64,000 bases of DNA from Tagaea sp. (lineage in GTDB: Bacteria > Pseudomonadota > Alphaproteobacteria > CACIAM-22H2), in NCBI GenBank assembly GCA_965279525.1, contig CBDIIB010000003.1, forward strand, positions 384,001-448,000. Direction: 5' to 3'. Within the stretch, counting starts at the first letter, position 1. Every line of letters begins with the position of its first letter. Below are positions 1-22,902 of this stretch, in pieces. The notes under the pieces are model-generated. The model did no database searches. It was not told the DNA's origin and worked only from the letters and a program-made list of their open reading frames with translations. Both the position numbers and the translations under genes were made by a program.

Positions 1-383
1 ACGACGTGGAGATTGGAGGCGGTCCACAGGTTCGCGGGCTCCGCGAGCGATGCCGGGATCGTCGCGGCCTCCGGCGACTTGTAGCTCTCGAACAGGCTGC
101 GGAAGGCACCCAGCGTGTTTGCGCTCGAACTCCAGAAGATGTCGGCCGCGGGCTTCGCGGCTTCGGCCTCCATTCGCCGGAGGAGCACGGCGCTGCCGCC
201 GGTGACGAAGTTGAACCGCACGTTGGCAAGCCGCTGGCGTCCCACGTCGGTGATCGACTGGACGGACTGCTGGTTGTTGGAGGTGTAGACGACGGCGTTA
301 CCGGCCGCCTGCGCGAAGGCCGGCAGTGCTGCGACGGTGCCGAGCCCGGCCAGGACGGTCCGGCGGTCGAGAAGGACAGACAT
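1..383 (-). CDS. ABC transporter substrate-binding protein, Fe3+/2-AEP/sugar-phosphate (AfuA/FbpA-like) family; 3' part outside window
   Basis: Read by hand (not in ORF track): ATG at 383 after AAGGGAG RBS; MSVLLDRRTVLAGLGTVAALPAFAQAAGNAVVYTS...GGSAVLLRRMEAEAAKPAADIFWSSS; twin-Arg-like signal; follows its permease and ATPase. Confidence 0.85.
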   Translation of the reverse strand, partial: MSVLLDRRTVLAGLGTVAALPAFAQAAGNAVVYTSNNQQSVQSITDVGRQRLANVRFNFVTGGSAVLLRRMEAEAAKPAADIFWSSSANTLGAFRSLFESYKSPEAATIPASLAEPANLWTASNLHV

Positions 384-415
384 GTGTTTCTCCCTTGCTT
401 GCGAAATCGTGGGTT

Positions 416-2059
416 TCATTTTGCGGCGAACAGGTCGAGCTTGAACCAAGTCGTCGCGACAAGGATCGGGACGAGGATGATGGAAACGAGCACCAGTCCG
501 TACGCCGAGGCCTGCGCCATCAGGTTGGAATCGATGAGGCGGAAGATCTGGATCGGCAGCGTCTCCTGTCCGGCCGAGTAGACCACGACCGAAGCACTCA
601 GTTCAGCCACCGTGGTCGTCCAGACAAGCACGCCTGCGGCCGCGACGGAGGGTACCATCAACGGGAACACGACCTTGAAAAAGGTCCGCAGGGGCGGGAC
701 GCCGAGGCTGATCGAGGCGTCCTCGATGGAATTCGGGATGTTGTAGAGCGTCGAGGAGGCATTGCGGATGCCGAACGGCAGGCGGCGGATCAGGTAGGCG
801 AGGACGACGATCCCGGCACCGCCCGCCAGCGGCAGCCAGCCGCCACTGAACGAGATGACGAGCCCGATACCGAGCACGGTACCCGACAGTGCCAGCGGCA
901 GGGCGGAGAGATAGTCGATCGCGGGCGTGAGGGCATTGCGCTTCTTGACGATCAGGAAGCCGACGAGCGTGCTGACGACGAGACTGAGCGCAGTGGCGAT
1001 CCCGGCGAAGGCGAGCGTGTTCCAGATCGGATCGGCGGCGTTGAGGAACACGCGTTCGAGATTGGCGGTCGTCCAGTCGCCCCAACGCATCACGGGGCCG
1101 CGCGCACGGGTAAAGGCACCGGCGATCACCGTCACGAGCGGCAGGATCGATACGACGACGATGAAAATCGCCGCGAGCCCGATCGGCAGGGCGGCCGCTC
1201 CCGCCAGCGGGCGCGGTTTCGCACCCCGGCCCTGGACGATCTCGTATCGTCCCCGCGCCACGATCCGGCGCTGGACGAACAGGACGCAGGCAACGATGGC
1301 GATGGATGCACTTGCCAGCGTGCTCTGCATCACCGGGTTTGTGCCGACCTCCGACACGAAGCTCTGGTAGGTCAGGACGGAGAGGAGCGGCACGCTGTGT
1401 CCAAGAATTGTCGCGACGGCGAAATTGCCGACGACCAGCGTGAAAACGAGCAGGGCACTCGCGAGGATGGCCGGCATCACCACCGGCACCATGACGTTGA
1501 CGAGCGAGCGGCCGGGCGGCACGCCGAGGCTCTGCGACGCTTCCTCCAGTTGGGAGTCGAACCCTCGGATCGCGGCCAGCGTGCCGATATAGACGTAGGT
1601 GTAGTAGATGAACGTCATGACCGTGATCAGGCCGAACCAGCCATAGAAGGACGGCAGACGGTAGCCCCAGTCGGCGGCGAGCCGGGTGAGGAAGCCGTTG
1701 TTGCCGAAGACCATCAGCCACGTCTGGGCGGCAATGACCTCGGGGACGATCAGCGTGGTCATCGGCAACAGTGCGATCAGCGCCTTGCCGGCGAACGAGA
1801 AACGCGCCGTGAAGAATGCGAGAGGCACGCCGATCAGCGTCGACGTGCAGGTCACGATCGCACCCAGCAGAAGCGTGTTGACGACCGCCGCCCGGTACTT
1901 GGCGTCCGTCGCCAATGTGACCCACCCGGACTGACCGTCTGCTCCGGCAACGAGACTTGTGCCCAGCACCTTGGCGAGCGGATAGAGCAGGAACAACACG
2001 GCGAGCGCCAGCGCCAGCGCCGAAAGCCAGAACCAGACATCGCGCAGCGGCCGGGTCAC
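416..2059 (-). CDS. ABC transporter permease, FbpB/AfuB-type (two fused TM domains)
   Basis: 547 aa, hydrophobic, two EAA loops (LEEASQSLG, IEDASISLG). Confidence 0.92.
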   Translation of the reverse strand: MTRPLRDVWFWLSALALALAVLFLLYPLAKVLGTSLVAGADGQSGWVTLATDAKYRAAVVNTLLLGAIVTCTSTLIGVPLAFFTARFSFAGKALIALLPMTTLIVPEVIAAQTWLMVFGNNGFLTRLAADWGYRLPSFYGWFGLITVMTFIYYTYVYIGTLAAIRGFDSQLEEASQSLGVPPGRSLVNVMVPVVMPAILASALLVFTLVVGNFAVATILGHSVPLLSVLTYQSFVSEVGTNPVMQSTLASASIAIVACVLFVQRRIVARGRYEIVQGRGAKPRPLAGAAALPIGLAAIFIVVVSILPLVTVIAGAFTRARGPVMRWGDWTTANLERVFLNAADPIWNTLAFAGIATALSLVVSTLVGFLIVKKRNALTPAIDYLSALPLALSGTVLGIGLVISFSGGWLPLAGGAGIVVLAYLIRRLPFGIRNASSTLYNIPNSIEDASISLGVPPLRTFFKVVFPLMVPSVAAAGVLVWTTTVAELSASVVVYSAGQETLPIQIFRLIDSNLMAQASAYGLVLVSIILVPILVATTWFKLDLFAAK

Positions 2060-3123
2060 GACGCGACCACGAGCGAGCGGGCGGGATCGAAGCGCAGCGC
2101 CACGCTTGCACCTACGGCATGAGGACTTGCCTCGTCGTGCGTTTCGACCCGGATCATGCGGCCGCCGGCAGTGCTGACCTGATATGTCGTTCGGCCGCCC
2201 AGATACTGCCGGCGAATCACCGTACAGGGGACGTCGCCGGTCGTTCCGCTTTCCCGTGGGAGAAGCCGGAGAGATTCGCAGCGTGCCACCAATATGGCCT
2301 TGCCGGGGCTGAGAGCCGCCGGTGCCGTCACTTCGACCGCCGCCCCGTCGAAGTCGATGCGCGTGCGGGCTCCACCGGCGACGGCGGAGGCAAGGGCGAT
2401 TTCGAGCGTGTTCGCGGCCCCGACGAAATCGGCGACATAGGCCGACACCGGGCGGGAATAGAGTTCCTCCGGCGTGCCGACCTGCTCGATCTGTCCCTCT
2501 CTGAGCAGGCCGATGCGGTCCGAGAGCGCCAGCGCCTCCTCCTGGTCGTGCGTGACGAGGATGGTCGTGATGCCGACCTGGCGCTGGAGGTCTGCGATCG
2601 TTTCGCGCACCTGCACGCGCAGCTTGGCGTCGAGGTTCGACAGCGGCTCGTCCATCAGCAGGACGGTCGGCTTGATCGCCAGCGCGCGCGCGAGTGCCAC
2701 GCGCTGGCGCTGGCCGCCGGACAGTGCTGCCGGCATGCGGTCGGCATAGGCGCTGAGCCCGACGCGCTCGAGATATTCGCCGACCGTCGCGTTGATCGCT
2801 GCCGCGTCCGCCTTCCGGGCACGCAGGCCGTAGGCGACGTTGTCGAACACGGTCTTGTCGGGAAAGAGCGCGTAGTCCTGGAACACCATGCCGATATCGC
2901 GCCGGTAGGCGGGGAGCTGCGTCACGTCGCGGTCGCCGAAATGCAGCGTTCCGGCGCGGACCGGGACGAAGCCGGCGATCGTGCGCAGCAAGGTCGTCTT
3001 GCCGCAGCCGCTTGGCCCGAGCAGGGTGAAGAGCGAGCCGTCGGCGACGTCGAGCGTCAGGCCCGAGATGACCGGGACGGAACCGTAACCAACAACCAGA
3101 TCCGTGATGCGGATGCCTGCCAT
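2056..3123 (-). CDS. ABC transporter ATP-binding protein, FbpC/PotA-type
   Basis: [28 protein letters not shown]; start trimmed to ATG 3123 (MAGIRITD). Confidence 0.93.
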   Translation of the reverse strand: MAGIRITDLVVGYGSVPVISGLTLDVADGSLFTLLGPSGCGKTTLLRTIAGFVPVRAGTLHFGDRDVTQLPAYRRDIGMVFQDYALFPDKTVFDNVAYGLRARKADAAAINATVGEYLERVGLSAYADRMPAALSGGQRQRVALARALAIKPTVLLMDEPLSNLDAKLRVQVRETIADLQRQVGITTILVTHDQEEALALSDRIGLLREGQIEQVGTPEELYSRPVSAYVADFVGAANTLEIALASAVAGGARTRIDFDGAAVEVTAPAALSPGKAILVARCESLRLLPRESGTTGDVPCTVIRRQYLGGRTTYQVSTAGGRMIRVETHDEASPHAVGASVALRFDPARSLVVAS

Positions 3124-3124
3124 G

Positions 3125-3898
3125 TCACGTGTTCTCCCGGATGATTTCCAGCGCCGCCGCGTGCCGCCGTGCATCGCCGGCGGCGAGCACGCGCGGGCCG
3201 CTTGCCAGCGTCAGTCGATCGCCGCGCCAATCGGTGATCACGCCACCTGCCCCCTCGATGATGGGCACGAACGCGGCAAAGTCGTGGATCTTGAGGCCGG
3301 CGTCGAGTGCGATGTCAGTCCGTCCGGAGGCGAGCCGCCCGTAGCTGAGTGCGGCCCCGCCATAGATGCGCCAGGCCGTGCAGGCGCTGAGTGCCGCAAG
3401 CGCGCGCTTCTCCTGAACGTCGAAAAAGTCCGGATTGCTGGCCGACATGATGGCACCGGGGAGATCGTCGCCCGGGCGCGTGCGGCAGATGGCGCCATCG
3501 TGCGTCGTCGGCCGACCCCGGGCACCGATCCAGCGCTCGCCTGTCGCCGGGAAGTGCATCGCGCCGACGACCGGCTCGCCGCGATGGGCAAGCGCTATGA
3601 GCGTACCGTAGACCGGCATGCCGGCAACGTAGGCCGCGGTACCGTCGATCGGATCAAGAATCCAGACGAACTCCGCCGCCGGCTGTTTGGCATCGAACTC
3701 TTCGCCGAGGATGCCGTGGTCGGGATATTCGGCGGCGATCATGTCGCGCAGGCGCCGCTCGATCGCGAGATCGAGTTCGGTGACGAACGATTTGTCGGGC
3801 TTGGTCCTGGAGCCCGCCGGACCGCCGGCACCGTCCCCGATCATGGCGGCGGCCGCGTCTGCAAGACGTTCGGCGAAGCTGACGAACGCAGCGTACAT
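3125..3898 (-). CDS. Inositol monophosphatase-family phosphatase (HisN-like)
   Basis: KPDKSFVTELD, GEE, WILDPIDGT, KIHDFAA; start trimmed to ATG 3898 (MYAAFVSFAE). Confidence 0.88.
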   Translation of the reverse strand: MYAAFVSFAERLADAAAAMIGDGAGGPAGSRTKPDKSFVTELDLAIERRLRDMIAAEYPDHGILGEEFDAKQPAAEFVWILDPIDGTAAYVAGMPVYGTLIALAHRGEPVVGAMHFPATGERWIGARGRPTTHDGAICRTRPGDDLPGAIMSASNPDFFDVQEKRALAALSACTAWRIYGGAALSYGRLASGRTDIALDAGLKIHDFAAFVPIIEGAGGVITDWRGDRLTLASGPRVLAAGDARRHAAALEIIRENT

Positions 3899-3947
3899 CA
3901 GGCGGCTCCCGCATTCTTGTTGTCGATGTCGTCGTTTCGAACCTGTG

Positions 3948-4826
3948 TCAGGGGCCTGTCCACCCGAAACGAGCCGCGAGATAGTCGGGCTGGGCCGGTG
4001 CCGTAGCCGTGAATTTCTGCCAGGCCGCGTCCGACGGCAGACCGCCGAACGTGATCTGCAGTTCTTCCATGTGTACGCCGCCGGCGACGAAAACGCTTCG
4101 CAGGCCCGCCGCTGCGGCCCCGCGGATGTCGTGATCGACGGAATCGCCGACGGCGACAACGCGGTTCCAGGCGACCGGCTCGAGAATGCGGCGGCTCTCC
4201 GCGTAGACCGACGGATGCGGCTTGCCATGCCACAGGACCGTGCCGCCACGCGCCTCGTACGCCCGCGCCACGACCCCGGCGGCCTCGTTGACCCCCGTGG
4301 GCGTCAGGCGCGCGAAATCGGGGTTGGCACAGACCATGGGCAGGCGGCGCGCGAGTGACTCGTCGAGTATGTCGCTCACGGACCCGACGAGCCCGGTCGC
4401 CTGTTCGAAGCCGACGACGCAAAGGAACTCCGCGTCGGCGACCCGTCCGACCATCTCGAGGCCGAGGCCGTCGAACAGTTCGCTGTCCTGGGGGCGTGCC
4501 AGTGCGAGGCACCGCCGACCGAGCGCGCGGTGTGCCGCATCGGGCCTTGTCGCGAGTGCCTGCCGGGCGGCATCGCCGGCGGTCACCAGCCCCTGATAGA
4601 GATCGGCGGGAATACCCATCCGGGAAAGCGTGCTGCGGTTATGGGCCGACAGACGGCCGGAATTGGACAGGATGACGACCTTCTTGCCGGCGGCACGCAT
4701 GCGGGCGAGGCTTTCAGCGGCACCGTCGTAGGGATTGGTGCCGTCGTGCAGCACGCCCCATTGGTCGAGGATGAAGCCGTCGAATTCACCCGCCAGATCG
4801 GACAGGGAACCGATGCGCCGCGCCAT
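3948..4826 (-). CDS. HAD-superfamily subfamily IIA hydrolase (TIGR01459-like)
   Basis: FILDQWGVLHDG (motif I), LSNSG, CANPD, GKP, VGDSVDHDI. Confidence 0.9.
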   Translation of the reverse strand: MARRIGSLSDLAGEFDGFILDQWGVLHDGTNPYDGAAESLARMRAAGKKVVILSNSGRLSAHNRSTLSRMGIPADLYQGLVTAGDAARQALATRPDAAHRALGRRCLALARPQDSELFDGLGLEMVGRVADAEFLCVVGFEQATGLVGSVSDILDESLARRLPMVCANPDFARLTPTGVNEAAGVVARAYEARGGTVLWHGKPHPSVYAESRRILEPVAWNRVVAVGDSVDHDIRGAAAAGLRSVFVAGGVHMEELQITFGGLPSDAAWQKFTATAPAQPDYLAARFGWTGP

Positions 4827-4827
4827 G

Positions 4828-5625
4828 TCAGGTCACCTTCGAGCGGATATGGGCCGATAGCGCTTCGCTGGCGATCACGATGACGAGGATGGCGGCCAAC
4901 ACGACCACCACGCGGTCCCAGGCGAACTGGTTGATCGATGCGTAAAGCTGGAGCCCGATCCCGCCGGCGCCGACGAACCCGAGGACGCTTGATTCGCGGA
5001 CATTGATGTCCCAGCGATAGACCGATGTGCCGATCATCACCGGCATGACCTGGGGCAGGATCGCGACCGCGTAAGTCTGCAACGTGCCGGCGCCTGTCGC
5101 ACGGATGGCCTCGACAGGCCCCGGATCGGCCTCCTCGATCGCCTCGGCGACAAGCTTGGCAAGGAACCCGATTGACCGCGCGGCGACCGCCGCAATGCCG
5201 GCGACAGGGCCAGGTCCGAATATCGCGACGAACAGCAGCCCCCAGACGACGGTATTGACCGAGCGTGATGCGACCAGGATCGACCGGCCGACCAGCCAGG
5301 TCGTGCCGTTGAGCGTGGTATTTCGCGCGGCAAGGAACGCGATCGGCAGCGAGAACACGACTCCGATTGCCGTTCCGAGTGTGGCGATGTGGATCGTCTC
5401 GATGAGCGGATCCACGATGATGGCAAGATACGACCAGCGTGGCGGCCACATTCGGACGGCGAGGTCGGCCGCCTGCTCGTGCGCGTCGATGAAAAAGGCC
5501 CACTCGATCTCGAGCGCATCCACCGACCAGACGCAGGCGAACGCCACAGCGACCGTCCAGGCCCAATGCTCGGCCGACTGGCGCAGCGTGAACCGGCGCC
5601 AATGCGCGGGACTGGGCGCTTTCAT
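4828..5625 (-). CDS. phnE: PhnE/PtxC-family ABC permease
   Basis: [41 protein letters not shown]; start at ATG 5625 overlapping upstream stop. Confidence 0.88.
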   Translation of the reverse strand: MKAPSPAHWRRFTLRQSAEHWAWTVAVAFACVWSVDALEIEWAFFIDAHEQAADLAVRMWPPRWSYLAIIVDPLIETIHIATLGTAIGVVFSLPIAFLAARNTTLNGTTWLVGRSILVASRSVNTVVWGLLFVAIFGPGPVAGIAAVAARSIGFLAKLVAEAIEEADPGPVEAIRATGAGTLQTYAVAILPQVMPVMIGTSVYRWDINVRESSVLGFVGAGGIGLQLYASINQFAWDRVVVVLAAILVIVIASEALSAHIRSKVT

Positions 5626-6428
5626 CGGATGCGCCTCCGGACCCAGTCGCTGAACCATTCGCCGAAAGCGACGAGAAAAGCGATGCACAGCAGGATCGCC
5701 AGGCTGAAATCGAAGTCGTAGCGCGAGAACGAGGCGGAAAGCGTCTGGCCGATTCCGCCGGCGCCGACGATGCCGATCACGGTCGAGTGCCGCAGGTTCG
5801 CGTCGAGCCGGTAGATGATGACGCCCATCGACCGGGACAGGATCTGGGGAACGATCGCGAAGGCGACAGTCTGGCCGAACGGAGCACCGGTCGCCCGGAT
5901 CGCCTCGACCGGGCCTGGCTGGATATTCTCGATGTCTTCAGCCAGCATCTTGCCGAGGAAAATCGCGGACGACAGTGCCAAGGTCAGCAGGCCCGCAACG
6001 GCGCCGAACCCGAATAGCTTGACGAAGAAGATGGCAATTATCACCTCGTGGAACGTCCGGCCAGCAACGATGAAGCCGCGAGCCGCGACGTAAATCGGTC
6101 GGGGTGCCAGATTGCGCGCGGCACACAGCGCCAGCGGCAGGCTGAGCAATACACCCAGGACCGTCGCGGTCAGGGCCATCTGCATGCTCTCGATCATTCC
6201 ACGCGAGATGAGTTCCCAGCGCCCGAAATCGGGCGGCACCATGCGCACGAAAATGTCGGCGGCGCGCGGGATCCCAAGCAGAACGCGGTCGAGGCCTATT
6301 TCCAGGTCGCTGATCGACCAGACGACATAAAGACATGCCGCCGCAACGGCGAGGCGCTGGCGGGCAAGCGAGCCGAACAGCGGCCGCCGGCGCCAGACCG
6401 TCGGATAGGCGGAAGCCGTCGCGGTCAT
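5622..6428 (-). CDS. phnE: PhnE/PtxC-family ABC permease
   Basis: [34 protein letters not shown]. Confidence 0.88.
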
Positions 6429-7264
6429 GCGCCCTCGTCGTCGGCGATGGCCGGGCCGATCGTCCGGCTCCAGTCCTCGGCTCCGTAGATCTCGGTGAGG
6501 GCTTCGGCAGACAGCATCGCGGGCAGGCCATCGAATACGACACGCCCCTCCTTTAGGCCGATCACCCGGTCGGAGAAATCGCGCGCCAGGGCCACGTCGT
6601 GGATGTTGACCAGTGCCGGAGTCCGGCTCTCGGCCGCGAGGGCGCGGATCAGCCGCATGATCTGGCGGGCAGTCTTCGGGTCGAGGCTTGCCGTCGGCTC
6701 GTCGACGAGCAGCAGGTCGGGCCGCTGCATCAAGGCGCGGGCGATGCCCACGCGCTGGCGTTGGCCGCCCGAAAGCGCGTCGGCGCGGGTATCCTGGTAT
6801 CCGGCCAGCCCGACCTTGTCGAGGAGTTCAAATGCGCCAGCAATGTCGTCCGGCGCGAAACGGCGGGTGAGCGTGGCGAACAATCCGACATGGCCGAGCC
6901 GCCCGCTCAGCACGTTCTCCATGACGGTCAGACGTTCGACCAGATTGTACTCTTGGAAGATCATGCCGATCCGCCGCCGCGCCAGCCGCAGGCCATTGCG
7001 ATCGAGCGTGGTCATGTCGACCCCACCGAGACGGATCATGCCGCCGGTCGGTTCGACGAGCCGATTGACGCAGCGGATCAGCGTGCTCTTGCCGGCACCG
7101 GACGATCCGATGATCGCGACGACACCCGGATCGGCAATATCGAAATCCACGCCGGCAAGTGCGGCCTTGCCCGTGGGATAGACCTTGTGCAGGCCCCGGA
7201 CCGATAGGAGCGGTGCGTCCGCCGGCCGGAGGCCGGCGGACGAGTCAGTTGTCGATGCAGTCAC
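6425..7264 (-). CDS. phnC: PhnC-family ABC ATP-binding protein
   Basis: [41 protein letters not shown]. Confidence 0.9.
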
Positions 7265-7267
7265 TTT

Positions 7268-8269
7268 TCACTCGGCCTTGTTCGAGAGCTTGTTGACGCC
7301 TTCCTGGGTGTAGCTCACGCCCATCGCCTTCTGGATCGTCCGGATGTCCTTCCAGGCGTCCTTGTACGAAAGCGTCGTGAAGCCGTGGGTGTCCTTGAAC
7401 TCGGTCGCGAGTTTCGACTTCTTGAAGTCGAAGTCGATGAAGGCCTTGACGATCTTGTCCTTGAGTTCGGGCTTGAGATTGTGTGCGACACCGAAGGCCG
7501 TGCGAGGGAACGGGGCGGATTCATAGATGACCCGCAGCGCACCCTTCGGAAACATGCCGCGCGCTTCCATGCGGTCGACGACGGACGACGCGACCGGAGC
7601 GGCGTCATAGTCCTTGTTGACCACGCCCATGATCGAGTTGTCGTGCTTCCCGGAGAAGATGACCTCGTAGTCTTTCCCCGGCTCGACGCCGAGCGCCTTG
7701 AACAGCATGCGCGGTGCCGTATCGCCGGAGTTCGACGACGGAGCGACGTGCGCGACGCGCTTGCCCTTCAGATCGGCAAGCGTGCGGATCGAGCTGTCCT
7801 TGTGGGTGATGAGGCGCAGCGTGTAGCCGATGCCGGTATCGTTCTGCATCGCCGCGACCGGCACGAAACCGGCAAGATTCACGGCAAACGGGGTGGGGCC
7901 GGAAGCGACGCCCGCGATGTGCAGGCGGCCCGAGCGCATCGCCTCGACCTGTGCGGCGTAGGATTCCGCGGGGAACCAGCGGATGCGCTTGCCGGTTGCC
8001 TTGGAAAGATGCTCGAGGAAATCGGAGAACACGTTCTCGTAGACGGCCGGATCCTCGACAGGCGTGTAGGAGAAGACCAGCGTCGCCGGATCCTGGACCT
8101 GACGGGGGTCCGTCGGCAGATCGGCGAGCATGTCTCCGTCGGAGTCGCAATAGCGCACGTCGAGATCGCCGCGATTGGCGCACGTACCTTGTGCAGCGAC
8201 GGGTGCCGTCGTCAGGAATGCAAGCAGCGCGATCGTTGCACTGCCGCAAGCCAGCTTCATACCGATCAT
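7268..8269 (-). CDS. phnD: Phosphate/phosphite/phosphonate ABC substrate-binding protein (PhnD family, long N-terminal variant)
   Basis: ATG 8269 after GGAGG; signal peptide; YTPVEDPAVY, YAAQVEAMRSG, SSNSG, SGKHDNS; directly upstream of phnC-phnE-phnE. Confidence 0.85.
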   Translation of the reverse strand: MIGMKLACGSATIALLAFLTTAPVAAQGTCANRGDLDVRYCDSDGDMLADLPTDPRQVQDPATLVFSYTPVEDPAVYENVFSDFLEHLSKATGKRIRWFPAESYAAQVEAMRSGRLHIAGVASGPTPFAVNLAGFVPVAAMQNDTGIGYTLRLITHKDSSIRTLADLKGKRVAHVAPSSNSGDTAPRMLFKALGVEPGKDYEVIFSGKHDNSIMGVVNKDYDAAPVASSVVDRMEARGMFPKGALRVIYESAPFPRTAFGVAHNLKPELKDKIVKAFIDFDFKKSKLATEFKDTHGFTTLSYKDAWKDIRTIQKAMGVSYTQEGVNKLSNKAE

Positions 8270-8299
8270 TTGACTGTTCCTCCCGGGGTTGAGGTTCAA

Positions 8300-10399: not shown

Positions 10400-10401
10400 A
10401 T

Positions 10402-11694
10402 TCAGAGTCCTGTTGCCTGGCGGAATCCGCGCTGGCGCGCGGCCTCCTGCCGGTAGCCGGCGGCACGAAAAGCCGCCAGGGGATCGAGTGCACCACCCTT
10501 GCGCCGCCGCGTCTCGCGGACAAGCGGGCGCATGTCGGAGCGGAAAGCGTCCTGCAGAGTCTCCTGCGCGAGCACCGGATCGTTCTGCGCGCGTGCAGCC
10601 GCCAGCGCGATCCGGTCGACTGTCAGGGCTTGGGCATAGGCGACGAGGATCGCTTCGGTCGACTGGAGCACATCTTCCATCGGGTCCTTGACGTTGTGGC
10701 TCGCGTCGATCATCAGGTCCGGCGCGTGACCTGCAAGCAGCCCATCACGTTCGGCCTCCACAAGTTCGTTGCAGATCAGGAACAGCTGGTAGGGATGGAT
10801 CGAACCCGTCGTCAGGTCGTCGTCGCCGTACTTCGAATCATTGAAGTGGAATCCGCCCAGACGGCCCTGATGGACGAGCATAGCGACGATCTGCTCGATG
10901 TTGGCGTTGGGCAAATGATGCCCGAGATCGACAAGGCAGCGTGCCTGCGGCCCGAGTGCGCGCGCGATCAATAGGCTCGTCCCCCAGTCTGGATTCACCG
11001 AGCTGTAGAAGGCCGGTTCGAAGGGCTTGTGCTCGGTATAGAGCGACCAGCCGGCGGGAAGTGAGGCATAGACCTGCGCCAGACTTTCGATCGTCCGGTC
11101 GAGAGCACCACGGAAACTGTGCTGGCCGGGGTGGTTGGTGCCGTCGGAGAGCCACACGGTGATCGCTTTGCTTCCGAGCGCCTCGCCGAGTGCGACGACG
11201 CCGAGCATGTGGTCGACCGCCCGGGAGCGGGCTTCGTCCCAGACATTGCTGACCGATCCGTAGCGGTAGCTGGCACGCGGGTCGTTGGGCGGTTCGCCAT
11301 CCTGGAAGGTGTTCGAATTGATCGGGCCGCACACGATCGCGTTCGACCGGAGGCAGTCGCGCAAGGCTGCCGGATCGTCCGGCCGGTCCCAGGGGATGTG
11401 CAGGCTGATCTCGCCGTTGGCGCGGGTGAGCCGGTCGATCGCCGCGACGTCCTCGACCTTCTGGATGACGTCGCGCGGTTCGCCGGCCTGCGTGAATCTT
11501 CCGAAGCGCGTACCGCCGGTGCCGAGCGCCCAGCTCGGCACGGCGATGCGTAGTGCCGACAGGCGCGCGATTGCCGCCTCGAACTCAACGCCGCGGCGCG
11601 CAAGCTGCCGACTGGCATGTTCGAGGTCCACCTCGTGAGCGGAACCGTCGCGGCGGGACTGGCGGTCGATCTGTTCGGTCAATCTGTCGGTCAT
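10402..11694 (-). CDS. rhaI: L-rhamnose isomerase, xylose-isomerase-like type
   Basis: PSWALGTGGTRFGRF, LHIPWD, EHKPFEPAFY, VDLGHH, GFHFNDSKYGDDDL; start at ATG 11694. Confidence 0.9.
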   Translation of the reverse strand: MTDRLTEQIDRQSRRDGSAHEVDLEHASRQLARRGVEFEAAIARLSALRIAVPSWALGTGGTRFGRFTQAGEPRDVIQKVEDVAAIDRLTRANGEISLHIPWDRPDDPAALRDCLRSNAIVCGPINSNTFQDGEPPNDPRASYRYGSVSNVWDEARSRAVDHMLGVVALGEALGSKAITVWLSDGTNHPGQHSFRGALDRTIESLAQVYASLPAGWSLYTEHKPFEPAFYSSVNPDWGTSLLIARALGPQARCLVDLGHHLPNANIEQIVAMLVHQGRLGGFHFNDSKYGDDDLTTGSIHPYQLFLICNELVEAERDGLLAGHAPDLMIDASHNVKDPMEDVLQSTEAILVAYAQALTVDRIALAAARAQNDPVLAQETLQDAFRSDMRPLVRETRRRKGGALDPLAAFRAAGYRQEAARQRGFRQATGL

Positions 11695-12725
11695 GCTGGA
11701 TCTCGACGATGGATCAACGGTGCGGTCGATCCGCGGACGATGAGTCGGGTCGGCACGATCGCCGAGGTCGGCCGGCGGCCGGTCAGTTGGGCATGGAGTG
11801 CCGATAGGGCCGCGCGCGCGATCGTCGGCACGTCCTGCGCGACCGTCGTCAGGGCCGGGTCGAACGCTTCGTCGAGCCACAGATTGTCGTATCCGACGAT
11901 GGACAGATCGTCGGGAATGCGCAGGCCTCCGCGGAGAGCCGTGGCCATGAAACCGAGAGCCATCAGGTCGCTGGCCGCGACAAGCGCCGTCGGGCGCCTG
12001 TCGAGCGCCAGCAAGGTGCGACCGACGGACTGTCCGCCAGCAAAAGTATAGGTCGTTCCGAATATCCATTCCGGGCGGCAGTCGAGACCGGCTTCGGCCA
12101 TCGCCTGGCGATAACCTTCAATGCGATCCTGGCCCGCGCCGATCTCGGCCGATGGACCCACGCAGCCGATCTCACGATGGCCGATCTCGACGAGATGCCG
12201 GACGGCCGTGACCATCGCCTCGCGTCCGTCAGAGCGGATGCTCGCGACGCCGCCGGTCAGATCGGATTGGTCGAGGATTACGGCCGGATAGCCGTCGAGT
12301 TCGGCACGCAGGTCGGGCGCCAGCGCATCGACCGACTGAAGCGGCGACATAATGACGCCGCTGACTCCGCGCCGCTTCAGGCTGCGGACCAGGCCGGGCA
12401 ACGTGTCCTCCTGGCCGGCAAGCGAGGCGACGAGAAAATTCATGCCGGCTTCGCGGAAGAGCGGCTCCATCTCGGCCAGAAGCTGGTGGAAGTAGGCATT
12501 CAAGAAGTCGTTGACGATGATCGCTACCGTTCGGGATGCCGCGCGCCCGCGCATCTGCCGGGCGGCGAACATCGGTACGTAGCCGAGGGACGCGATGACG
12601 TCTTCGATGCGCGAGCGCGTCTGTTCTGCCACAGGACCGCTGGCATTGAGCACGCGCGAAACGGTTGCCGGCGACGCGTTCGCGAGGCGGGCGACGTCCT
12701 TTATCGTGGCCTGTTTCGGGATCAT
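11691..12725 (-). CDS. LacI-family transcriptional regulator
   Basis: TIKDVARLANASPATVSRVLN HTH, LGYVP hinge, IPDDLSIVGYD. Confidence 0.93.
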   Translation of the reverse strand: MIPKQATIKDVARLANASPATVSRVLNASGPVAEQTRSRIEDVIASLGYVPMFAARQMRGRAASRTVAIIVNDFLNAYFHQLLAEMEPLFREAGMNFLVASLAGQEDTLPGLVRSLKRRGVSGVIMSPLQSVDALAPDLRAELDGYPAVILDQSDLTGGVASIRSDGREAMVTAVRHLVEIGHREIGCVGPSAEIGAGQDRIEGYRQAMAEAGLDCRPEWIFGTTYTFAGGQSVGRTLLALDRRPTALVAASDLMALGFMATALRGGLRIPDDLSIVGYDNLWLDEAFDPALTTVAQDVPTIARAALSALHAQLTGRRPTSAIVPTRLIVRGSTAPLIHRRDPA

Positions 12726-14095
12726 GCGGATGCCACCGCACGTCGCCAGCTATCGCGATGCGCCGCGATCCGTGCATCGGCGATGGGGACGGCGGTGACG
12801 AAACCCGTACCGTTGCCGCGGCGACCGCGCGCGACGAGGGCGGCACCGAGCGGTGTCCCGTCCGTCGCCGTGTCGAGATGGATGCGATCCGATGGGCGTA
12901 TCGCCGCAAGCGTGCGACCGAACAGCGGCAGACCGGCAAACGGCCCGGTGACATAAATGTCTGCGGCCGCGCCGAGGCGGTCGAGGCACCAGTCGCTGAC
13001 AAGTGCCACGTAAAGGATGGCAAGTGCTGCTCGTCCGGCCGCGTCGAGCGTGCCGTCCGCAAATACGCGGCCAGGCAGGATGCGGAACGGTCCACCTGCT
13101 GTGGCGAACGAAGGAAGCGCCGTCGCGCCTGAGGCGATGACCTGCATCAATGCCGTATCGTTGGCGAGTGGCAGCGATTCTGCCGAGACGATTGCCTCGG
13201 CCTCGCGTCCGCCCATAAAGCGGATGCTCGGCACCGAGGTGCCGTCGGGCGCGACGTTCGCAAGCATGTCTTTGGCTGGATCGAGCGTATCCACCGACCC
13301 ACCAGGGCGAAGTGCGACGAACCAGGTTCCGGTCGAAAGGATTGTCGCACTGCCGTCGCCCCGCCCGATACAGCGCCAGGCAGCGGCGTTGCTGTCGTGT
13401 ACGCCGCAATGGATCGGCAAGCCGTCTGGAAGGCCGAGGCGCCGCGCAATTCCAGGATCGAGAGTTCCGATCACATCGCCCGCCGGGCGGATCGGTGCAA
13501 AACGCGTGTCCCATCCACGCCGGGTTGCGAGCCGCGAATAGCCGCGAGTCATCGGGTTCCAAAGATCGGTGTGGCAGCCCAGGGACGATACTTCGCTCGC
13601 TGCTACCCCGGAAAATCGCCATGCCCAATACTGCGGGAACGGCACCAGATAGCGTCCGGCCGAGAAACGGGCGGGATCGACGTCTTCCATCCATGCGAGC
13701 TGCCGGCCAAGATTGAGACCGGCAGGCAGCTGTGGCGAGAGGGTTTCCGAGAAGTCCCGCACTTCGGCGCCGTAGGCGGCGGCGACATTCGCGGGCGGCT
13801 CGGCCTCGTAGTCCATAACCGGCAATGCGAGTGATCCGTCGCCGATCAGCGCTGCGGCGGCACCATGCGCGACCGGCATCACGCCGGTCGGTGCGAAGTC
13901 CTGAGCCATCTCAGAAAGCCCGTCGCACAAAGCGGCGAAAGTGTCGTCGACATCGAGATGCGGATAGGGCGGGGCGCCGCGCGCACGACAGGCGTGCCGG
14001 CGGACGAACGAGATCTGGCCGTCTTCCGCCACGCCGACGACACGCGCGGCGGACTTTCCGACGTCGAGGACCGCAAGGACGGGCTCGCGCGTCAT
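12722..14095 (-). CDS. rhaK: FGGY-family carbohydrate kinase (RhaK-like)
   Basis: LDVGKS, VAHGA, LGCHTDLW, GVHDSNA, STGTW, FMGGRE; adjacent to rhaI/rhaD. Confidence 0.8.
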   Translation of the reverse strand: MTREPVLAVLDVGKSAARVVGVAEDGQISFVRRHACRARGAPPYPHLDVDDTFAALCDGLSEMAQDFAPTGVMPVAHGAAAALIGDGSLALPVMDYEAEPPANVAAAYGAEVRDFSETLSPQLPAGLNLGRQLAWMEDVDPARFSAGRYLVPFPQYWAWRFSGVAASEVSSLGCHTDLWNPMTRGYSRLATRRGWDTRFAPIRPAGDVIGTLDPGIARRLGLPDGLPIHCGVHDSNAAAWRCIGRGDGSATILSTGTWFVALRPGGSVDTLDPAKDMLANVAPDGTSVPSIRFMGGREAEAIVSAESLPLANDTALMQVIASGATALPSFATAGGPFRILPGRVFADGTLDAAGRAALAILYVALVSDWCLDRLGAAADIYVTGPFAGLPLFGRTLAAIRPSDRIHLDTATDGTPLGAALVARGRRGNGTGFVTAVPIADARIAAHRDSWRRAVASA

Positions 14096-15774
14096 ACCAG
14101 CGCCTCTTCCCGCTTGCCCAGAAACGTGAACAGCACGACGAGCGGCAGGAAGGTCAGCAGGATCAGCACCGTGCCGAGCGCGGACGCGATACCGAAATTG
14201 GCGTTCACGACCTCATTGAAGATTTCGATGCTGAGCGTGACGGTGTTTCCCGATTGCAGGATCAGCGTGGCGCTGAGCTCGCGGATCGTGTTCGACCACG
14301 TCAACAGAACGCCGGACAGGATCGCCATCGCGAGCAGCGGCACCGTTATCTTCAGGAAGGTGCGGCCAGGACCGGCGCCGAGATTGATCGAGGCGTCCTC
14401 CGTGTCCCTTGAAAGCTGCTGCAGCATGCTGACCGACGAGCGTACCGAAAAGGGAAGGCGGCGAATGAAGAAGGCCAGAATCAGGATGGCCGACGTGCCG
14501 GTCAGGATGATCGGCGGCTCGTTGTAGGTGACGATCAGTCCGACGCCGAGCACGATGCCGGGAACCGCGTAGGAGAACATCACCACACCGTCCAGCAGTC
14601 CGCCGAGCCGGCCGGGGCGGCGGACGATGATGTAGCCGACCGCGGTTCCGACGACCGCGCACATTGTCGTCGCGACGGTCGTGTAGAAGATCGTGTTTGA
14701 AAGCGGTGTCGCGATCGTGCGGAAGATGTGGACATAGTTCCCGAGCGTGAATTCGGCGACGAGCAGCGGCCCGTTCGCCTTCAGGAACGACGAGATCACG
14801 ATATTGATGATCGGCATCAGTGCCAGTCCGACAAGCAGCAGAACGTAGGCACTGGCAAGAAGCCGTTTCAGTGGCCGCTGCTCTTGCATCGTCAGCGGCC
14901 GGATCGCGGCTGTGCCGTGTGCGTGGCGCGCGGCGAACCAGCGCTGCAGGAGCAGCGCGGCTGTCGTCACGGTCAGCAGCAGTACGGCAAGCGTGCTGGC
15001 CAGGACCGGTCGGCCGCCGAATTCGTTGACGAACTCGCCGTAGATCAGCACGGGCAGCACGCGGAACCGTTCGCCGATGATGATAGGCGTGCCGATGTCG
15101 GTGAAGGCGGCGACGAAGACGAGCAGCGCGCCGGCACTGATCGACGGAACAAGCAGCGGGAGGAGCACGGTGAAGAAGACGCGCAGTTCGCCGCTCCCGA
15201 GGTTGCGCGCGGCATCCTCTATCGACTGGTCGATCGACTTCAGCCCCGACGACACCATAAGGAATACGAACGGGAAAAACTGGAGTGTGAAGACAAGGAC
15301 GATGCCAGGCGCCCCGTAGATCGAGGGAAGGGGAATGCCGAAGTCCGCCAAAGTCGATGTGATCAGGCCGCTCCGTCCGAAGAGGATGACCCACGAGTAC
15401 GAACCGATGAAGGGTGGCGACACGAACGTCAGCACGACAGCCGCTCGCACGAAGCCACGGCCCCAGATATCATAGCGTGTGGCGAAATACGCAGCAGGCA
15501 CACCGAAAAGGACAGCCAGAACGGTTGTCGCGGCGCTGACCTGGAGACTGTTGATCAGGGTCTGGTAGTAAAAGCGCTCCGAAAAGAATGTCTTGTAGTT
15601 CGCAAGCACGCTCGACTGCGCGTCCTTGCCCGAAAGGCTGAGGCCGATGATGTTGATGACGGGCATGACCAGCAGTGCGAAGAGCGCCACGAACACCAGC
15701 GCCGTGACGACCGGCCAGAAGCCCATCCGACGCGCGAGCCAGCCGCCGGCACGACTGTGGACAGCGCTCGTCAT
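14092..15774 (-). CDS. ABC transporter permease, FbpB/AfuB-type
   Basis: 560 aa, two EAA loops (IEDAARNLG, TEDASINLG). Confidence 0.92.
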   Translation of the reverse strand: MTSAVHSRAGGWLARRMGFWPVVTALVFVALFALLVMPVINIIGLSLSGKDAQSSVLANYKTFFSERFYYQTLINSLQVSAATTVLAVLFGVPAAYFATRYDIWGRGFVRAAVVLTFVSPPFIGSYSWVILFGRSGLITSTLADFGIPLPSIYGAPGIVLVFTLQFFPFVFLMVSSGLKSIDQSIEDAARNLGSGELRVFFTVLLPLLVPSISAGALLVFVAAFTDIGTPIIIGERFRVLPVLIYGEFVNEFGGRPVLASTLAVLLLTVTTAALLLQRWFAARHAHGTAAIRPLTMQEQRPLKRLLASAYVLLLVGLALMPIINIVISSFLKANGPLLVAEFTLGNYVHIFRTIATPLSNTIFYTTVATTMCAVVGTAVGYIIVRRPGRLGGLLDGVVMFSYAVPGIVLGVGLIVTYNEPPIILTGTSAILILAFFIRRLPFSVRSSVSMLQQLSRDTEDASINLGAGPGRTFLKITVPLLAMAILSGVLLTWSNTIRELSATLILQSGNTVTLSIEIFNEVVNANFGIASALGTVLILLTFLPLVVLFTFLGKREEALV

Positions 15775-16838
15775 CGAGCTTCGACCGGAAAAAGCCAGAG
15801 TGCACCGGGCGGCAGCGAAAGGCCGACCCGGCTTCCTGGCATCGGGAGTTCCTGGCCCGCGCGGCCCGTGAGCGCCACTTGCGCGGTATGGCCGGGGGCA
15901 AGTTCGAGAACGAGGCGGATCGTTGCACCGTAGAACTGCGTGTCTGCGACCGTCGCATTCCAGCCGCCATCGATCGGGGTTCCCAGCACGAGGTCGTGGC
16001 TGCGGAACGCGATTTCGGCCTGCGGGCCAACTGCGGCGGCGCGGTCGGCGGGCACCGAAAGTCTGCCGCCGCCGGGCACTTCGTATACGGCCGCGCCAAC
16101 TCGCGTGGCGGGCAGGAAGTTACTCTCGCCGATGAAGGACGCGACAAAGCGTGTCTGCGGCCTATGGAAGATCTCGACCGGGGTGCCGACCTGCTCGACA
16201 TGACCGGCGCTCATTACGGCGACGCGATCCGACATCATCAGCGCTTCTTCCTGATCATGGGTCACATAGATCGTCGTGACCCCGATCTGGCGCTGCAGCG
16301 CCCGAATTTCACCACGCAGATGCACGCGCATTTCCGTATCGAGATTCGACAGGGGTTCGTCCATGAGCAGGACGTCCGGCTCGATCACGATCGCGCGCGC
16401 CAGCACGACGCGCTGCTGCTGTCCGCCGGAAAGCTCGCGCGGGCGGCGGTGGCCGAGATGTTCGAGCCGCATCATCGCGAGCATGCGGGCGACACGGTCG
16501 TTCACCTCGGCCTTGGGCAATCCCCGTGCGCGCAAGCCGTAAGCGATGTTGTCGATGACCGTCAGATGGGGAAAGATCGCGTAGTTCTGGAAGACCATCC
16601 CCGTATTGCGTCGGTGTGCGGGGACGTCATCGATGCAGGTATCGCCAAACAGGATGCGCCCGCCGCTCTGCGGCATGAACCCAGCGACAATGCGCAGCAG
16701 CGTGGTCTTGCCGCAGCCGCTGGAACCCAACAGCGTGAAGAACTCGCCCTTCGCGATCGATAGATCGACCTTGTCGACCGCCGTAACCTCACCGAACCTT
16801 TTGCTGACCTGCTCTATGCGGACCGAAGTCGACGCCAT
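15771..16838 (-). CDS. ABC transporter ATP-binding protein, FbpC/PotA-type
   Basis: GSSGCGKT, LSGGQQQR, MDEPLSNLD. Confidence 0.93.
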   Translation of the reverse strand: MASTSVRIEQVSKRFGEVTAVDKVDLSIAKGEFFTLLGSSGCGKTTLLRIVAGFMPQSGGRILFGDTCIDDVPAHRRNTGMVFQNYAIFPHLTVIDNIAYGLRARGLPKAEVNDRVARMLAMMRLEHLGHRRPRELSGGQQQRVVLARAIVIEPDVLLMDEPLSNLDTEMRVHLRGEIRALQRQIGVTTIYVTHDQEEALMMSDRVAVMSAGHVEQVGTPVEIFHRPQTRFVASFIGESNFLPATRVGAAVYEVPGGGRLSVPADRAAAVGPQAEIAFRSHDLVLGTPIDGGWNATVADTQFYGATIRLVLELAPGHTAQVALTGRAGQELPMPGSRVGLSLPPGALWLFPVEAR

Positions 16839-16872
16839 ACCCGTGCCTCTGAAATTGAGTCGACTGATGGAA

Positions 16873-16907
16873 TGCCGCCGCCCGGATCGCCGATCCGGGC
16901 GGCGGCA
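16873..16907. terminator. Strong stem-loop between SBP and ATPase genes (mRNA-stabilising or attenuating hairpin)
   Basis: TGCCGCCGCCCGGATCG-C-CGATCCGGGCGGCGGCA, 17-bp perfect inverted repeat just after the SBP stop; no U-tract. Confidence 0.65.
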
Positions 16908-16913
16908 AGCCGT

Positions 16914-17915
16914 TCAGCTCTGTGTCTTGATGATGATCTGCTGCATCTTGTCGAGGATTTCCTTGCGGTTCTGTGCCGCCCAGCTCTCGTCATATTCGAT
17001 GACCTTGAACTTGTCGGGTGCCAGCATCTCGGGGTGTGTCTTGACGCCCTTTACGGTTGGCCGGCGCCCGGGGAACTTCTCGGCGAGCTGGGTCTGCGCG
17101 TCGACCGTCAGCAGATAGTCGGCGAACAGCCGGGCTGCCTTCGGGTTCTGCGCTCCCTTGACGATAAACATGCCTTCCGGCTGCAGCAGCGTGCCGTCAG
17201 TCGGGTAGACAATGCCGGCATTGCCAGCGAGCACGTAGTTGAAGGCACCTTCCTCGTAGGTGACACCGATCGGATATTCGCCGCGGCCCACCTGCTGGAA
17301 AACGAGCGACGAGCGCAGCACGATGTTCATGTTGCGCGTCATGTCTTCGACGAGCTTCCATGCCGCATCGCCCTTGCCGTAGATCTGCAGCCATGTCGTC
17401 AGCGCGCCGAGCGACGAACTCGACTTCGACGGATCGGCATGTACGACCTTGCCCTTCCATTGCGGCTTGGCGAGGTCAGCCCATGTCTTCGGCGCCTGAT
17501 CGGCCGGAACGAGCTTCTTGTTGTACATGATGACCATCGTGCTGGCGCCGAACGGCGTGTTGAAGCCGGCCGGATCGACCATCTTCGGCTCGACATTCGA
17601 CATGTTCTTCGAGCGGTAGACGTCGAAGAGGTCGGGCGACGAAGACCCGGTATCGGAGAAGCCGCCCCACATGACGTCGCCGGCCGGCCGGCCGCGCTCG
17701 GCGCGGATGCGGTTGAGGAGTTCGCCGGTTCCTGCCTTGACGGTCGTTACCTTGATGCCGTTCTTCTCGCCGAACTCCTTGGTGAAATGGTCCACCATTT
17801 CCGACGGGTGCGAGGCATAGATGACGAGCTGCTTTTCGTGGTCTTGCGCCAGGGCGGCAAACGCCATGACGGAAAGTGCGCCGGCCAGCGCCAGCGTCCC
17901 GAACGATTTAATCAC
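16914..17915 (-). CDS. ABC substrate-binding protein, AfuA/FbpA-like
   Basis: GTG 17915 after GGGAGG; signal peptide; AGTGELLNRIRAE, DVMWGG, ADPSKSSS, YPTDGT. Confidence 0.88.
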   Translation of the reverse strand: MIKSFGTLALAGALSVMAFAALAQDHEKQLVIYASHPSEMVDHFTKEFGEKNGIKVTTVKAGTGELLNRIRAERGRPAGDVMWGGFSDTGSSSPDLFDVYRSKNMSNVEPKMVDPAGFNTPFGASTMVIMYNKKLVPADQAPKTWADLAKPQWKGKVVHADPSKSSSSLGALTTWLQIYGKGDAAWKLVEDMTRNMNIVLRSSLVFQQVGRGEYPIGVTYEEGAFNYVLAGNAGIVYPTDGTLLQPEGMFIVKGAQNPKAARLFADYLLTVDAQTQLAEKFPGRRPTVKGVKTHPEMLAPDKFKVIEYDESWAAQNRKEILDKMQQIIIKTQS

Positions 17916-18004
17916 CGGTTTCCTCCCGAGGCTCACGTTGAACTCGCTAAATCGCCGGATGGCGATGTTGCGGTTTGATGTGTTTTTTGTGACAATAACG
18001 TGAA

Positions 18005-18018
18005 TGGAATCGGTTCCA
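18005..18018. promoter_or_regulatory. LacI-type operator upstream of the rha/phosphatase operon
   Basis: TGGAATCGGTTCCA near-palindrome with central CG; on the minus strand it lies in the 17-bp spacer of TGGACA-N17-CACGTT. Confidence 0.65.
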
Positions 18019-18202
18019 CTGTCCAACGAATATGATTCCGCAGTGCAGCACGGCTGCCGTTCGCTCCTGCAAATTGGGAGATCCCAGATGACCCACTTGG
18101 GAATGGCTTTGTCGTGTAAAGCCGGTCGGCGAATTCACAAAAATGCGGCGATGGACTCCGGTTCTTGGCGGAACGGGGCGCCGAAGTGAAGGCACTCCTC
18201 AC

Positions 18203-18991: not shown

Positions 18992-19053
18992 CGCGGCGGG
19001 CGTGGCGATGCCGATGATGCATCGCGCGCGGTGGAGGGATAGGCTTCCCGACC

Positions 19054-20076: not shown

Positions 20077-20088
20077 CGTCTCTTGCCT

Positions 20089-20799: not shown

Positions 20800-20803
20800 C
20801 AAC

Positions 20804-22896: not shown

Positions 22897-22902
22897 CGAC
22901 TT

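Follow-up and report, generated by a model that had tools for sequence, protein, structure and literature searches.

The subject of this analysis is a 64,000-nucleotide window of the genome of Tagaea sp. (assembly GCA_965279525.1, contig CBDIIB010000003.1, forward-strand positions 384,001 to 448,000), designated here G000:C3:384001-448000, where G000 is the genome studied, C-numbers attached to genomes are contigs, the other G labels denote comparison genomes and L labels denote loci. One end of the window is occupied by an array of exactly 16 minus-strand genes, running from position 17915 to 612 bases past the window start, in which genes for rhamnose-type catabolism stand together with ATP-binding cassette (ABC) importers and phosphatase-like proteins, and which an earlier note on this DNA had read as a single pathway for the use of rhamnose phosphate. 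Gene content was called by scanning the 16 minus-strand frames with Pfam and NCBIfam profiles, and start codons were chosen by the presence of a Shine-Dalgarno sequence (those of PhnE-type permease 2 and ATPase_B, described below, included); the final gene, encoding the binding protein SBP_B, crosses the window start and its remainder was completed from the genome sequence. The scans reproduced the gene list and order of the earlier note, with co-oriented, packed genes, 4-bp overlaps and gaps of no more than 75 bp: seven junctions are overlaps of 4 bp and the others are gaps of 75, 2, 30, 3, 1, 49, 1 and 32 bp. Such spacing suggests that the 16 genes are co-transcribed, and terminator-like hairpins are not enriched within the array (8, against 10.2 +/- 3.2 in shuffled sequences). 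At its 3' end the array meets a convergent plus-strand operon encoding a DeoR regulator, a Ugp-like CUT1 ABC system, an IMPase and a short-chain dehydrogenase (SDR), whilst its 5' boundary is a divergent IMPase-family gene, IMPase2 (18143-18991, plus strand).

The intergenic region shared by the first gene of the array, encoding the binding protein SBP_A, and the divergent IMPase2 gene contains a putative LacI operator: a perfect LacI-type palindrome, TGGAATCGGTTCCA (18005-18018, no strand assigned), that lies ~90 nt upstream of the SBP_A start and has no other exact copy in the window. The same motif is found at the equivalent relative position in the sister genome G007. The array is thus probably one tightly packed unit under LacI control, judging from its spacing and this site. 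Its genes fall into four modules, here called A, B, C1 and C2 in order from 17915 downwards, all on the minus strand.

Module A (17915-8300) comprises an AfuA-family importer, a RhaK-type kinase, a LacI repressor, an isomerase and a RhaD fusion. The importer consists of SBP_A, a 333 amino acid periplasmic binding protein of the AfuA/FbpA family (16914-17915; Pfam SBP_bac_6/8/11) with a GTG start preceded by a GGGAGGA ribosome-binding site, the ABC ATPase_A with a TOBE_2 domain (15771-16838; Pfam/NCBIfam) and the fused two-domain permease_A, a 560 amino acid PhnU2/ThiP-like protein with two BPD_transp_1 stretches (14092-15774). It is followed by the RhaK-type FGGY sugar kinase (12722-14095; PF21546 FGGY_C_2, 164.6 bits), which shares 35-44% identity with its counterparts at rhizobial rha loci, and by the LacI-family repressor (11691-12725; Pfam/NCBIfam). 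The next gene encodes a 430 amino acid homologue of the Pseudomonas stutzeri-type L-rhamnose isomerase (10402-11694; 469 bits to PDB 2HCV), an enzyme class broad in specificity. Residues W57, F66 and H101 of the P. stutzeri enzyme (2HCV) are conserved, yet the protein scores under both RhaI equivalog cut-offs (TIGR02629, 492.6 against a cut-off of 646.75) and belongs to a small clade with 69-85% identity, whose next relatives are no more than 61% identical. The last gene of the module encodes a fusion of rhamnulose-1-phosphate aldolase and short-chain dehydrogenase of the RhaD/RhaEW type (8300-10399), which passes TIGR02632 with a score of 889.6 against a cut-off of 567.75. In such a set of enzymes, the isomerase would turn an aldose into a ketose, the kinase would convert this to the ketose-1-phosphate and the fusion would give dihydroxyacetone phosphate (DHAP) and lactaldehyde, then lactate.

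The natural point of comparison is the rhaRSTPQUK-rhaDI locus of Rhizobium leguminosarum, which, in the available part of its description, encodes RhaI, RhaK and the RhaD/RhaEW fusion of a pathway for L-rhamnose that proceeds by phosphorylation (Rodionova et al. 2013, PMC3870299). The two loci are alike in their P. stutzeri-type isomerase, RhaK-type kinase and aldolase/dehydrogenase fusion but differ in transport and regulation, with an AfuA-family importer here in place of the CUT2 RhaSTPQ system, a LacI regulator in place of DeoR and no mutarotase gene at the window locus. In line with the earlier note, Pfam and NCBIfam scans found no CUT2 RhaSTPQ, DeoR RhaR or RhaU mutarotase genes in the 16-gene array or in the rest of the window; the DeoR-family gene of the convergent operon lies just outside the window. 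The order of isomerase and fusion also differs, with isomerase preceding fusion here and fusion preceding isomerase at most of 79 other rhaI loci. The sole RhaM (L-rhamnose mutarotase) gene of the genome sits on contig C4 (~1291-1311 kb, L104), together with genes for a GntR regulator, a sulfatase, two NMT1/SsuA-like ABC systems, an SMP-30 lactonase, an enolase-superfamily dehydratase, an aldo-keto reductase and an amidohydrolase_2 protein; by its gene content this locus looks like a non-phosphorylative deoxyhexose route combined with desulfation, and is a candidate for the use of sulfated rhamnose or fucose.

Module A is a conserved core, present at ~20 loci in four genera. Within the same genus it is carried by G007, G014, G018, G001 (in two copies) and G002, with the isomerase found in 5/20 congeners and SBP_A likewise in 5/20, and genera g312 and g320 carry it too. 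SBP_A orthologues are also seen in Bosea, Kaistia adipata, Rhizobium sp. CG4 and Xinfangfangia; among 400 sampled genomes of the class, only the genome studied had an SBP_A match, and in the plasmid collection there was none. Among metagenome contigs whose isomerase is at least 69% identical, the importer lies upstream in all nine informative cases (9/9), and it was found at none of the 35 loci (0/35) whose isomerase is no more than 61% identical. Of 80 rhaI loci from other bacteria, one has importer A, and many of the other 79 carry two-ATPase CUT2-like genes. The pairing of importer A with rha genes thus recurs in relatives; synteny of the full array was found in this genome only.

Three variants of the core can be distinguished. 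In the first (V1), the order is importer, kinase, LacI, isomerase and fusion, as in G000, G007, G014 (cut by a contig end), L105, L116, L010 (= L107) and L106 (= L167); L110 resembles V1 without LacI. In the second (V2), the order is importer, isomerase, fusion and a different kinase, 41% identical to that of V1 (G018, G001 twice, G002, L108, L111, L112, G425 and G427). The two V2 copies in G001, on its contigs C9 and C3 (L007 and L008), lie in different neighbourhoods, and both of their isomerases are 79% identical to that of the window; at L111 an aminotransferase gene precedes the importer. The third, minimal variant (V3) consists of importer and fusion alone (G424 and G432). Here the permease gene is followed by an intact RhaD/SDR fusion with 65-67% identity, after a gap of 32-38 bp measured between manually picked frames with provisional start codons. 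In these two assemblies (93% and 88% complete, respectively) no RhaI-like gene was found at E 1e-3 or better, no RhaA-type isomerase (PF06134) was found, and a search for a kinase homologue found none at E 1e-10 or better and no PF21546 FGGY_C_2 match above the cut-off. Across the relatives, then, the invariant neighbour of importer A is the aldolase/dehydrogenase fusion, not the isomerase or the kinase. An importer A orthologue without rha genes alongside was also seen in G442 (L165, 696-12884; 66% identity), flanked by genes for a TauE sulfite exporter, a flavin adenine dinucleotide (FAD) oxidase, an aldehyde dehydrogenase, an aldo-keto reductase and a DHDPS-family lyase; the sole RhaD-like gene of G442 is 37% identical and lies at another site.

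What does importer A carry? The closest solved relatives of SBP_A are 8X1A (the top hit), AfuA (4R72-75), P5PA (6WCE) and HptA (6LKG), and all three structures with known ligands in the best five rows (AfuA, P5PA and HptA) are of phosphate-ester binders. For both SBP_A and SBP_B, these same relatives outrank the iron-binding members of the family. P5PA binds pyridoxal phosphate (PLP) and HptA is a sensor of glucose-6-phosphate, whilst the ligands of AfuA are glucose-6-phosphate, fructose-6-phosphate and sedoheptulose-7-phosphate, with the sugar coordinated by the triad His205, Asp206 and Glu229 (Sit et al. 2015, PMC4546632). The AfuA phosphate contacts Ser37 and Thr150 correspond to Thr and Ser in SBP_A, a conservative change. 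The window system shares with AfuABC (PMC4546632), P5PA and HptA a common binding-protein family, a fused permease and a single ATPase; SBP_A and SBP_B are, however, only ~30% identical to AfuA, and the sugar triad by which AfuA is defined is replaced in both, so that neither is an AfuA orthologue, although both would be AfuA-like in working. The predicted pocket motifs of SBP_A (KAGTGEL, DPSKSSS, TYEE and DGTLL(Q/E)) are invariant in 14 of 16 other aligned sequences, these being orthologues of at least 60% identity that span V1, V2 and V3, and the same ligand is therefore expected throughout the variants.

The minimal variant bears directly on the nature of that ligand. The aldolase needs a ketose-1-phosphate and cannot be fed by a free sugar, so that V3 implies either import of an already phosphorylated compound or gap-filling enzymes. 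Because the fusion is the invariant partner of the importer, and two genomes keep importer and fusion only, the evidence leans towards a phosphoester, and we give about an even chance to the prediction that importer A carries a phosphorylated 6-deoxy-L-hexose or ketose. An imported sugar phosphate would be cleaved directly by the fusion; alternatively, it would be dephosphorylated by the divergent IMPase2 and would re-enter via the isomerase and kinase.

Phosphorus-related neighbours of the core recur. An IMPase-family gene adjoins it, divergent from the importer, in 8 of 13 assessable loci: that of the window (G000), where the gene is IMPase2, and seven others with a counterpart of IMPase2 (G007, G018, G001-C3, G002, L108, L116 and G424). 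The G424 locus also encodes an RpiR/SIS regulator, which we count towards the phosphoester lean. In five loci, phosphorus-related genes that are not homologous to one another follow or flank the core: modules B and C in G000, genes for two GpxB-like binding proteins and a PF04185 phosphoesterase in G018, a CUT1 system with an IMPase in G007, an Na/Pi cotransporter-PhoU gene and a metallophosphoesterase gene in L108 and two more AfuA-like systems in G424. Unrelated neighbours are found at other core loci (dipeptidase genes in G001-C9, a prophage in L116).

Taken together, these observations lead us to propose, with some caution and at somewhat less than even confidence, that the conserved core is an undescribed route in which an AfuA-family importer would feed a deoxyhexose or ketose phosphate, such as rhamnose or rhamnulose phosphate, straight to a bifunctional aldolase/lactaldehyde dehydrogenase. 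In its minimal form, this route would take an external sugar phosphate to DHAP and lactate by means of one importer and one polypeptide, a form that lacks the isomerase and kinase of the R. leguminosarum rha locus; the isomerase, kinase and IMPase would be later add-ons that admit the aldose, and the whole may be part of a wider strategy of importing an ester and then hydrolysing or cleaving it to scavenge phosphorus and carbon. The earlier note's proposal of rhamnose-phosphate import is thus supported in part: the rha enzymes are served by an AfuA-family importer, conserved in relatives and retained in the minimal variant, but the idea of three importers for one substrate finds no support.

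A known system offers a partial parallel. In the acc system of Agrobacterium, an imported sugar phosphodiester (agrocinopine) is split and then dephosphorylated by the IMPase-family protein AccG. Like acc, the window places an ABC importer and a cytoplasmic IMPase-family phosphatase before ordinary sugar catabolism; the binding protein of acc is, however, of another family, and the 16-gene array has no phosphodiesterase. Neither the available part of PMC3870299 nor the listed titles of literature pairing rhamnose with AfuA pointed to an AfuA-type importer associated with rhamnose genes, and no literature joining rhamnose-1-phosphate, ABC transporter and catabolism was found.

Several points weigh against this reading of module A. 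G424 and G432 are incomplete drafts, so that the absence of isomerase and kinase means 'not found'. The AfuA triad His205/Asp206/Glu229 is replaced by Glu/Glu/Gln in SBP_A; the mapping of this triad and of the phosphate contacts onto SBP_A and SBP_B assumes an offset of +2 between the numbering of the paper and that of the chain. There are 11 SBP_A-family paralogues in the genome, and the family may have diversified to neutral ligands; no IMPase gene adjoins the core in the remaining 5 of the 13 assessable loci (L110, L111, L112, G432 and G442); and the route would require that rhamnose or rhamnulose phosphates be available in the environment. All ligands assigned here to proteins of the window, finally, are predictions from homology and residue conservation.

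The strongest competing explanation is that importer A was recruited for free L-rhamnose or a close neutral sugar, in which case module A would be an ordinary rhamnose operon and its phosphate-related neighbours would be coincidental. Isomerase, kinase and aldolase fusion do form the standard free-sugar route, LacI-type control is typical of sugar operons, rhamnose transporters are often replaced, as noted in the available part of Rodionova et al. (2013, PMC3870299), and, with 11 such binding proteins and nine IMPase paralogues in the genome, chance adjacency would not be rare. Set against this, there is no neutral-sugar binder among the 41 solved relatives of SBP_A listed, the minimal variant of importer and fusion cannot use a free sugar, and phosphorus-related neighbours recur although they are not homologous. 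To our knowledge, moreover, no neutral-sugar binder has been described in the SBP_A family. Free L-rhamnose is thus a possible but somewhat unlikely alternative cargo, and we judge the reading of module A as an ordinary rhamnose operon to be unlikely to the same degree.

It is also conceivable, though improbable in our view, that the rha-like enzymes act on some other substrate, either another L-sugar or, given the acidic Glu-Glu-Gln pocket of SBP_A, a cationic or amino derivative, and that the isomerase is not dedicated to rhamnose. The low equivalog scores of the isomerase, its separate clade (at least 69% identity, with the next relatives at no more than 61%), the breadth of the P. stutzeri enzyme class and the aminotransferase gene that precedes the importer at L111 would all fit such a scheme, but the RhaD fusion passes its own equivalog cut-off and the isomerase retains its first-shell residues, Phe66 among them. 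A sulfo-sugar (sulfoquinovose-like) route was considered and rejected for stereochemical reasons: the products of rhamnulose-1-phosphate aldolases have the L-threo configuration, that of sulfofructose phosphate being D-threo. The TauE gene lying 6 kb from the importer orthologue of G442 is too weak a lead for that idea.

Returning to the window, module B follows the core and corresponds to the genes that the earlier note had named phnD, phnC, phnE and phnE, names that suggest a phosphonate importer. Its binding protein (7268-8269) is predicted to be a GpxB-type glycerol-1-/3-phosphate binding protein on the strength of its match to PDB 9LF9/9LFB (E 1.8e-85), and it is encoded with a PhnC-type ATPase (6425-7264; TIGR02315, 302.2 > 266.1) and two PhnE-type permeases, permease 1 (5622-6428; TIGR01097, 253.5 > 216.7) and permease 2 (4828-5625; TIGR01097, 280.5 > 216.7). 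Structures 9LF9 and 9LFB show Marinobacter GpxB in complex with its ligands, sn-glycerol-1-phosphate and sn-glycerol-3-phosphate, as reported by Wang et al. (2025, PMC12718374). According to the available part of that report, GpxB is a component of a high-affinity transporter for both compounds, mutation of Tyr138, His199, Arg223 or Thr247 lowers binding 10- to 100-fold, and Arg223 and Thr247 replace the acidic pair Glu177/Asp205 with which PhnD binds the amine of 2-aminoethylphosphonate. When the window protein is aligned to GpxB (rather than to PhnD), all four of these ligand residues are kept (4/4), with Arg and Thr at the positions matching Arg223 and Thr247. It also misses the PhnD equivalog TIGR03431, with a score of 142.4 against a cut-off of 261.1. 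On these two grounds, the missed equivalog and the Arg and Thr in place of the acidic pair, the phosphonate PhnCDE identity was rejected; from residue conservation and structural similarity, module B would import sn-glycerol-1-phosphate and/or sn-glycerol-3-phosphate, not phosphonates.

Like the GpxB system (PMC12718374), module B has one PhnC-type ATPase and two PhnE-type permeases besides the binding protein. It differs in lying within a longer operon, behind rhamnose-type genes, whereas such systems stand alone in G025 and, according to a figure legend in the available part of the same paper, in Phaeobacter (PMC12718374). No module B orthologue with more than 59% identity was found in the relatives searched; the closest relative, in G025, stands between cobalamin genes and a regulator, and that locus has no HAD or IMPase match, for which reason the HAD protein was rejected as a partner of GpxB.

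This HAD protein, which constitutes module C1 (3948-4826), belongs to the HAD-IIA group and passes TIGR01459. Motif I of HAD phosphatases has the form DxDx(T/V), in which Asp+2 serves as the general acid/base. The window protein and three orthologues instead have LDQWGV, with Trp at Asp+2, and the nearest structure, PDB 6NQ4, has DVWGV; the nearest characterised relative is the glycerol-3-phosphate phosphatase 4I9F, at an E-value of only 1.8e-11. With Trp in place of the catalytic Asp+2, it is doubtful that the HAD protein is a phosphatase. Orthologues with 66-69% identity occur in G007, G011 and G017, none of them adjoining the rha core and each beside genes of another ABC importer, which in G007 (the sole locus Pfam-scanned) comprises an SBP_bac_6 binding protein, a fused permease and an ATPase. 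In Nitratireductor sp. (L087, 9158-9988), a TIGR01459-type HAD protein that is 37% identical and has LDQFGV as motif I is encoded immediately upstream of a rhizobial-type rhaI, the sole such case among the 80 loci.

Module C2 comprises an IMPase-family phosphatase (3125-3898), ABC ATPase_B (2056-3123), the fused permease_B of 547 amino acids (416-2059), the latter two assigned by Pfam and NCBIfam, and SBP_B, a second AfuA-family binding protein identified by a search for structural relatives and by alignment (383 to -612, the N-terminal part at 1-383 lying in the window). The IMPase is the first gene of the unit and a paralogue of HisN, with the metal and substrate motifs GEE and DPIDGT intact. 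Identity as HisN itself was rejected, since it scores under the cut-off (TIGR02067, 242.3 < 275.15) and the true HisN, encoded on contig C5, scores 291.5. SBP_B keeps the AfuA phosphate contacts Ser37 and Thr150 (as Ser and Thr), and Asn/Gly/Thr replace the triad His205/Asp206/Glu229. IMPase, ATPase_B, permease_B and SBP_B form a conserved four-gene operon with 73-83% identity in 6/20 congeners (G001, G002, G009, G013, G015 and G018); in G018 millions of bases separate it from the core, and in G001 the two are on different contigs. In 7/7 genomes the IMPase is translationally coupled to importer B, with which it belongs; it is no part of the rha set. Module C2 would thus import another phosphate monoester, to be hydrolysed in the cytoplasm by its own IMPase.

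Since the modules lie apart in sister genomes, a model in which they form a single pathway finds no support there. We think it rather probable that the array consists of four modules assembled in this lineage, a direction that we infer, and operating in parallel, not as a single pathway; the complete set of 16 genes in this order was seen in this genome only. Some features sit uneasily with such a mosaic. In G018, too, the core is followed by a GpxB-type system, separated from the kinase gene by up to ~355 bp, an adjacency unlikely to be due to chance; core and module C2 co-occur in 4/6 core-bearing congeners, through kinship or function; and the modules are so tightly joined here that they may share a physiological role.

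The reading in the earlier note goes much further, with all 16 genes serving one pathway: rhamnose phosphate or a rhamnose phosphodiester would enter via three anion-type importers, and HAD and the IMPase at 3125-3898 would release rhamnose for RhaI, RhaK and RhaD. Tight packing, a single LacI-type operator for the whole array, three binding proteins that all come from phosphoester- or oxyanion-binding families and the GpxB-like genes that follow the core in G018 are consistent with this, but sister genomes carry the phn, HAD and IMPase/ABC_B modules at sites away from the core, the full array occurs at no other locus compared, the PhnD-like protein keeps a glycerol-phosphate pocket, the HAD protein lacks Asp+2 and the IMPase is coupled to importer B, so that we regard a single pathway as very unlikely. 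The earlier note's naming of phnD and its assignment of HAD and IMPase to sugar release likewise find no support. Its more general idea of taking up phosphorylated substrates and processing them within the cell fits the pairing of importers and phosphatases in the surrounding DNA and, for importer A, is backed by the minimal variant, though not as one rhamnose pathway.

The window as a whole is dense in genes for organophosphate uptake and ends at pstS and pstC. This island contains four AfuA-type importers (the genome has 11 binding proteins of this type) and four of the nine IMPase-family genes of the genome within ~30 kb, together with several CUT1 systems, a second HAD protein, a DSP-like phosphatase, an MBL-fold protein, an EEP-family enzyme and a GDPD. 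Divergent from the array, the unit at 18143-25771 encodes IMPase2, LacI2, the DSP-like phosphatase, an ATPase, an AfuA-like binding protein, a fused permease and the MBL-fold protein. A second unit (25833-31458) has genes for a SorC regulator and an SDR beside an IMPase with a CUT1 ABC system, and in a third (31581-36744) a HAD_2 gene is divergent from genes for an AfuA-like binding protein, a 771 amino acid fused permease and an ATPase. The genes at 52369-62298 encode a CUT1 binding protein, an ATPase, an EEP-family phosphoesterase and a GDPD glycerophosphodiesterase and run directly into pstS and pstC; from its gene content, this looks like a Ugp/UgpQ-type unit joined to a high-affinity phosphate transporter. 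Using the Pho-box consensus TGTCAY-N5-TGTCAY with two mismatches allowed, we found three matches in the window against 8.5 expected by chance, which is not significant. All three (17989-18005, 32309-32325 and 52330-52346) lie in promoter regions of importer operons, the first abutting the LacI palindrome upstream of SBP_A, and they are a lead only.

For annotation, these results indicate that 'phnDCEE' genes beside sugar genes can encode a glycerol-phosphate importer, that the genes here annotated as iron(III) binding proteins are almost certainly not those of iron transporters and that TIGR01459 HAD proteins lack a catalytic residue expected of phosphatases. The island, with its four AfuA-type systems, several CUT1 systems, one GpxB-type system, four IMPases, two HAD proteins, GDPD and pstSC, would be a compact system in which to study the harvest of dissolved organic phosphorus by free-living bacteria. 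It is the conserved core with its minimal form, not the 16-gene fusion, that gives the finding its value. Should importer A indeed carry a deoxyhexose phosphate, it would be the first known transporter for such compounds and would add a second substrate class to the AfuA family, and it would mean that a catabolic pathway can dispense with its kinase step when the sugar is imported as a phosphate.

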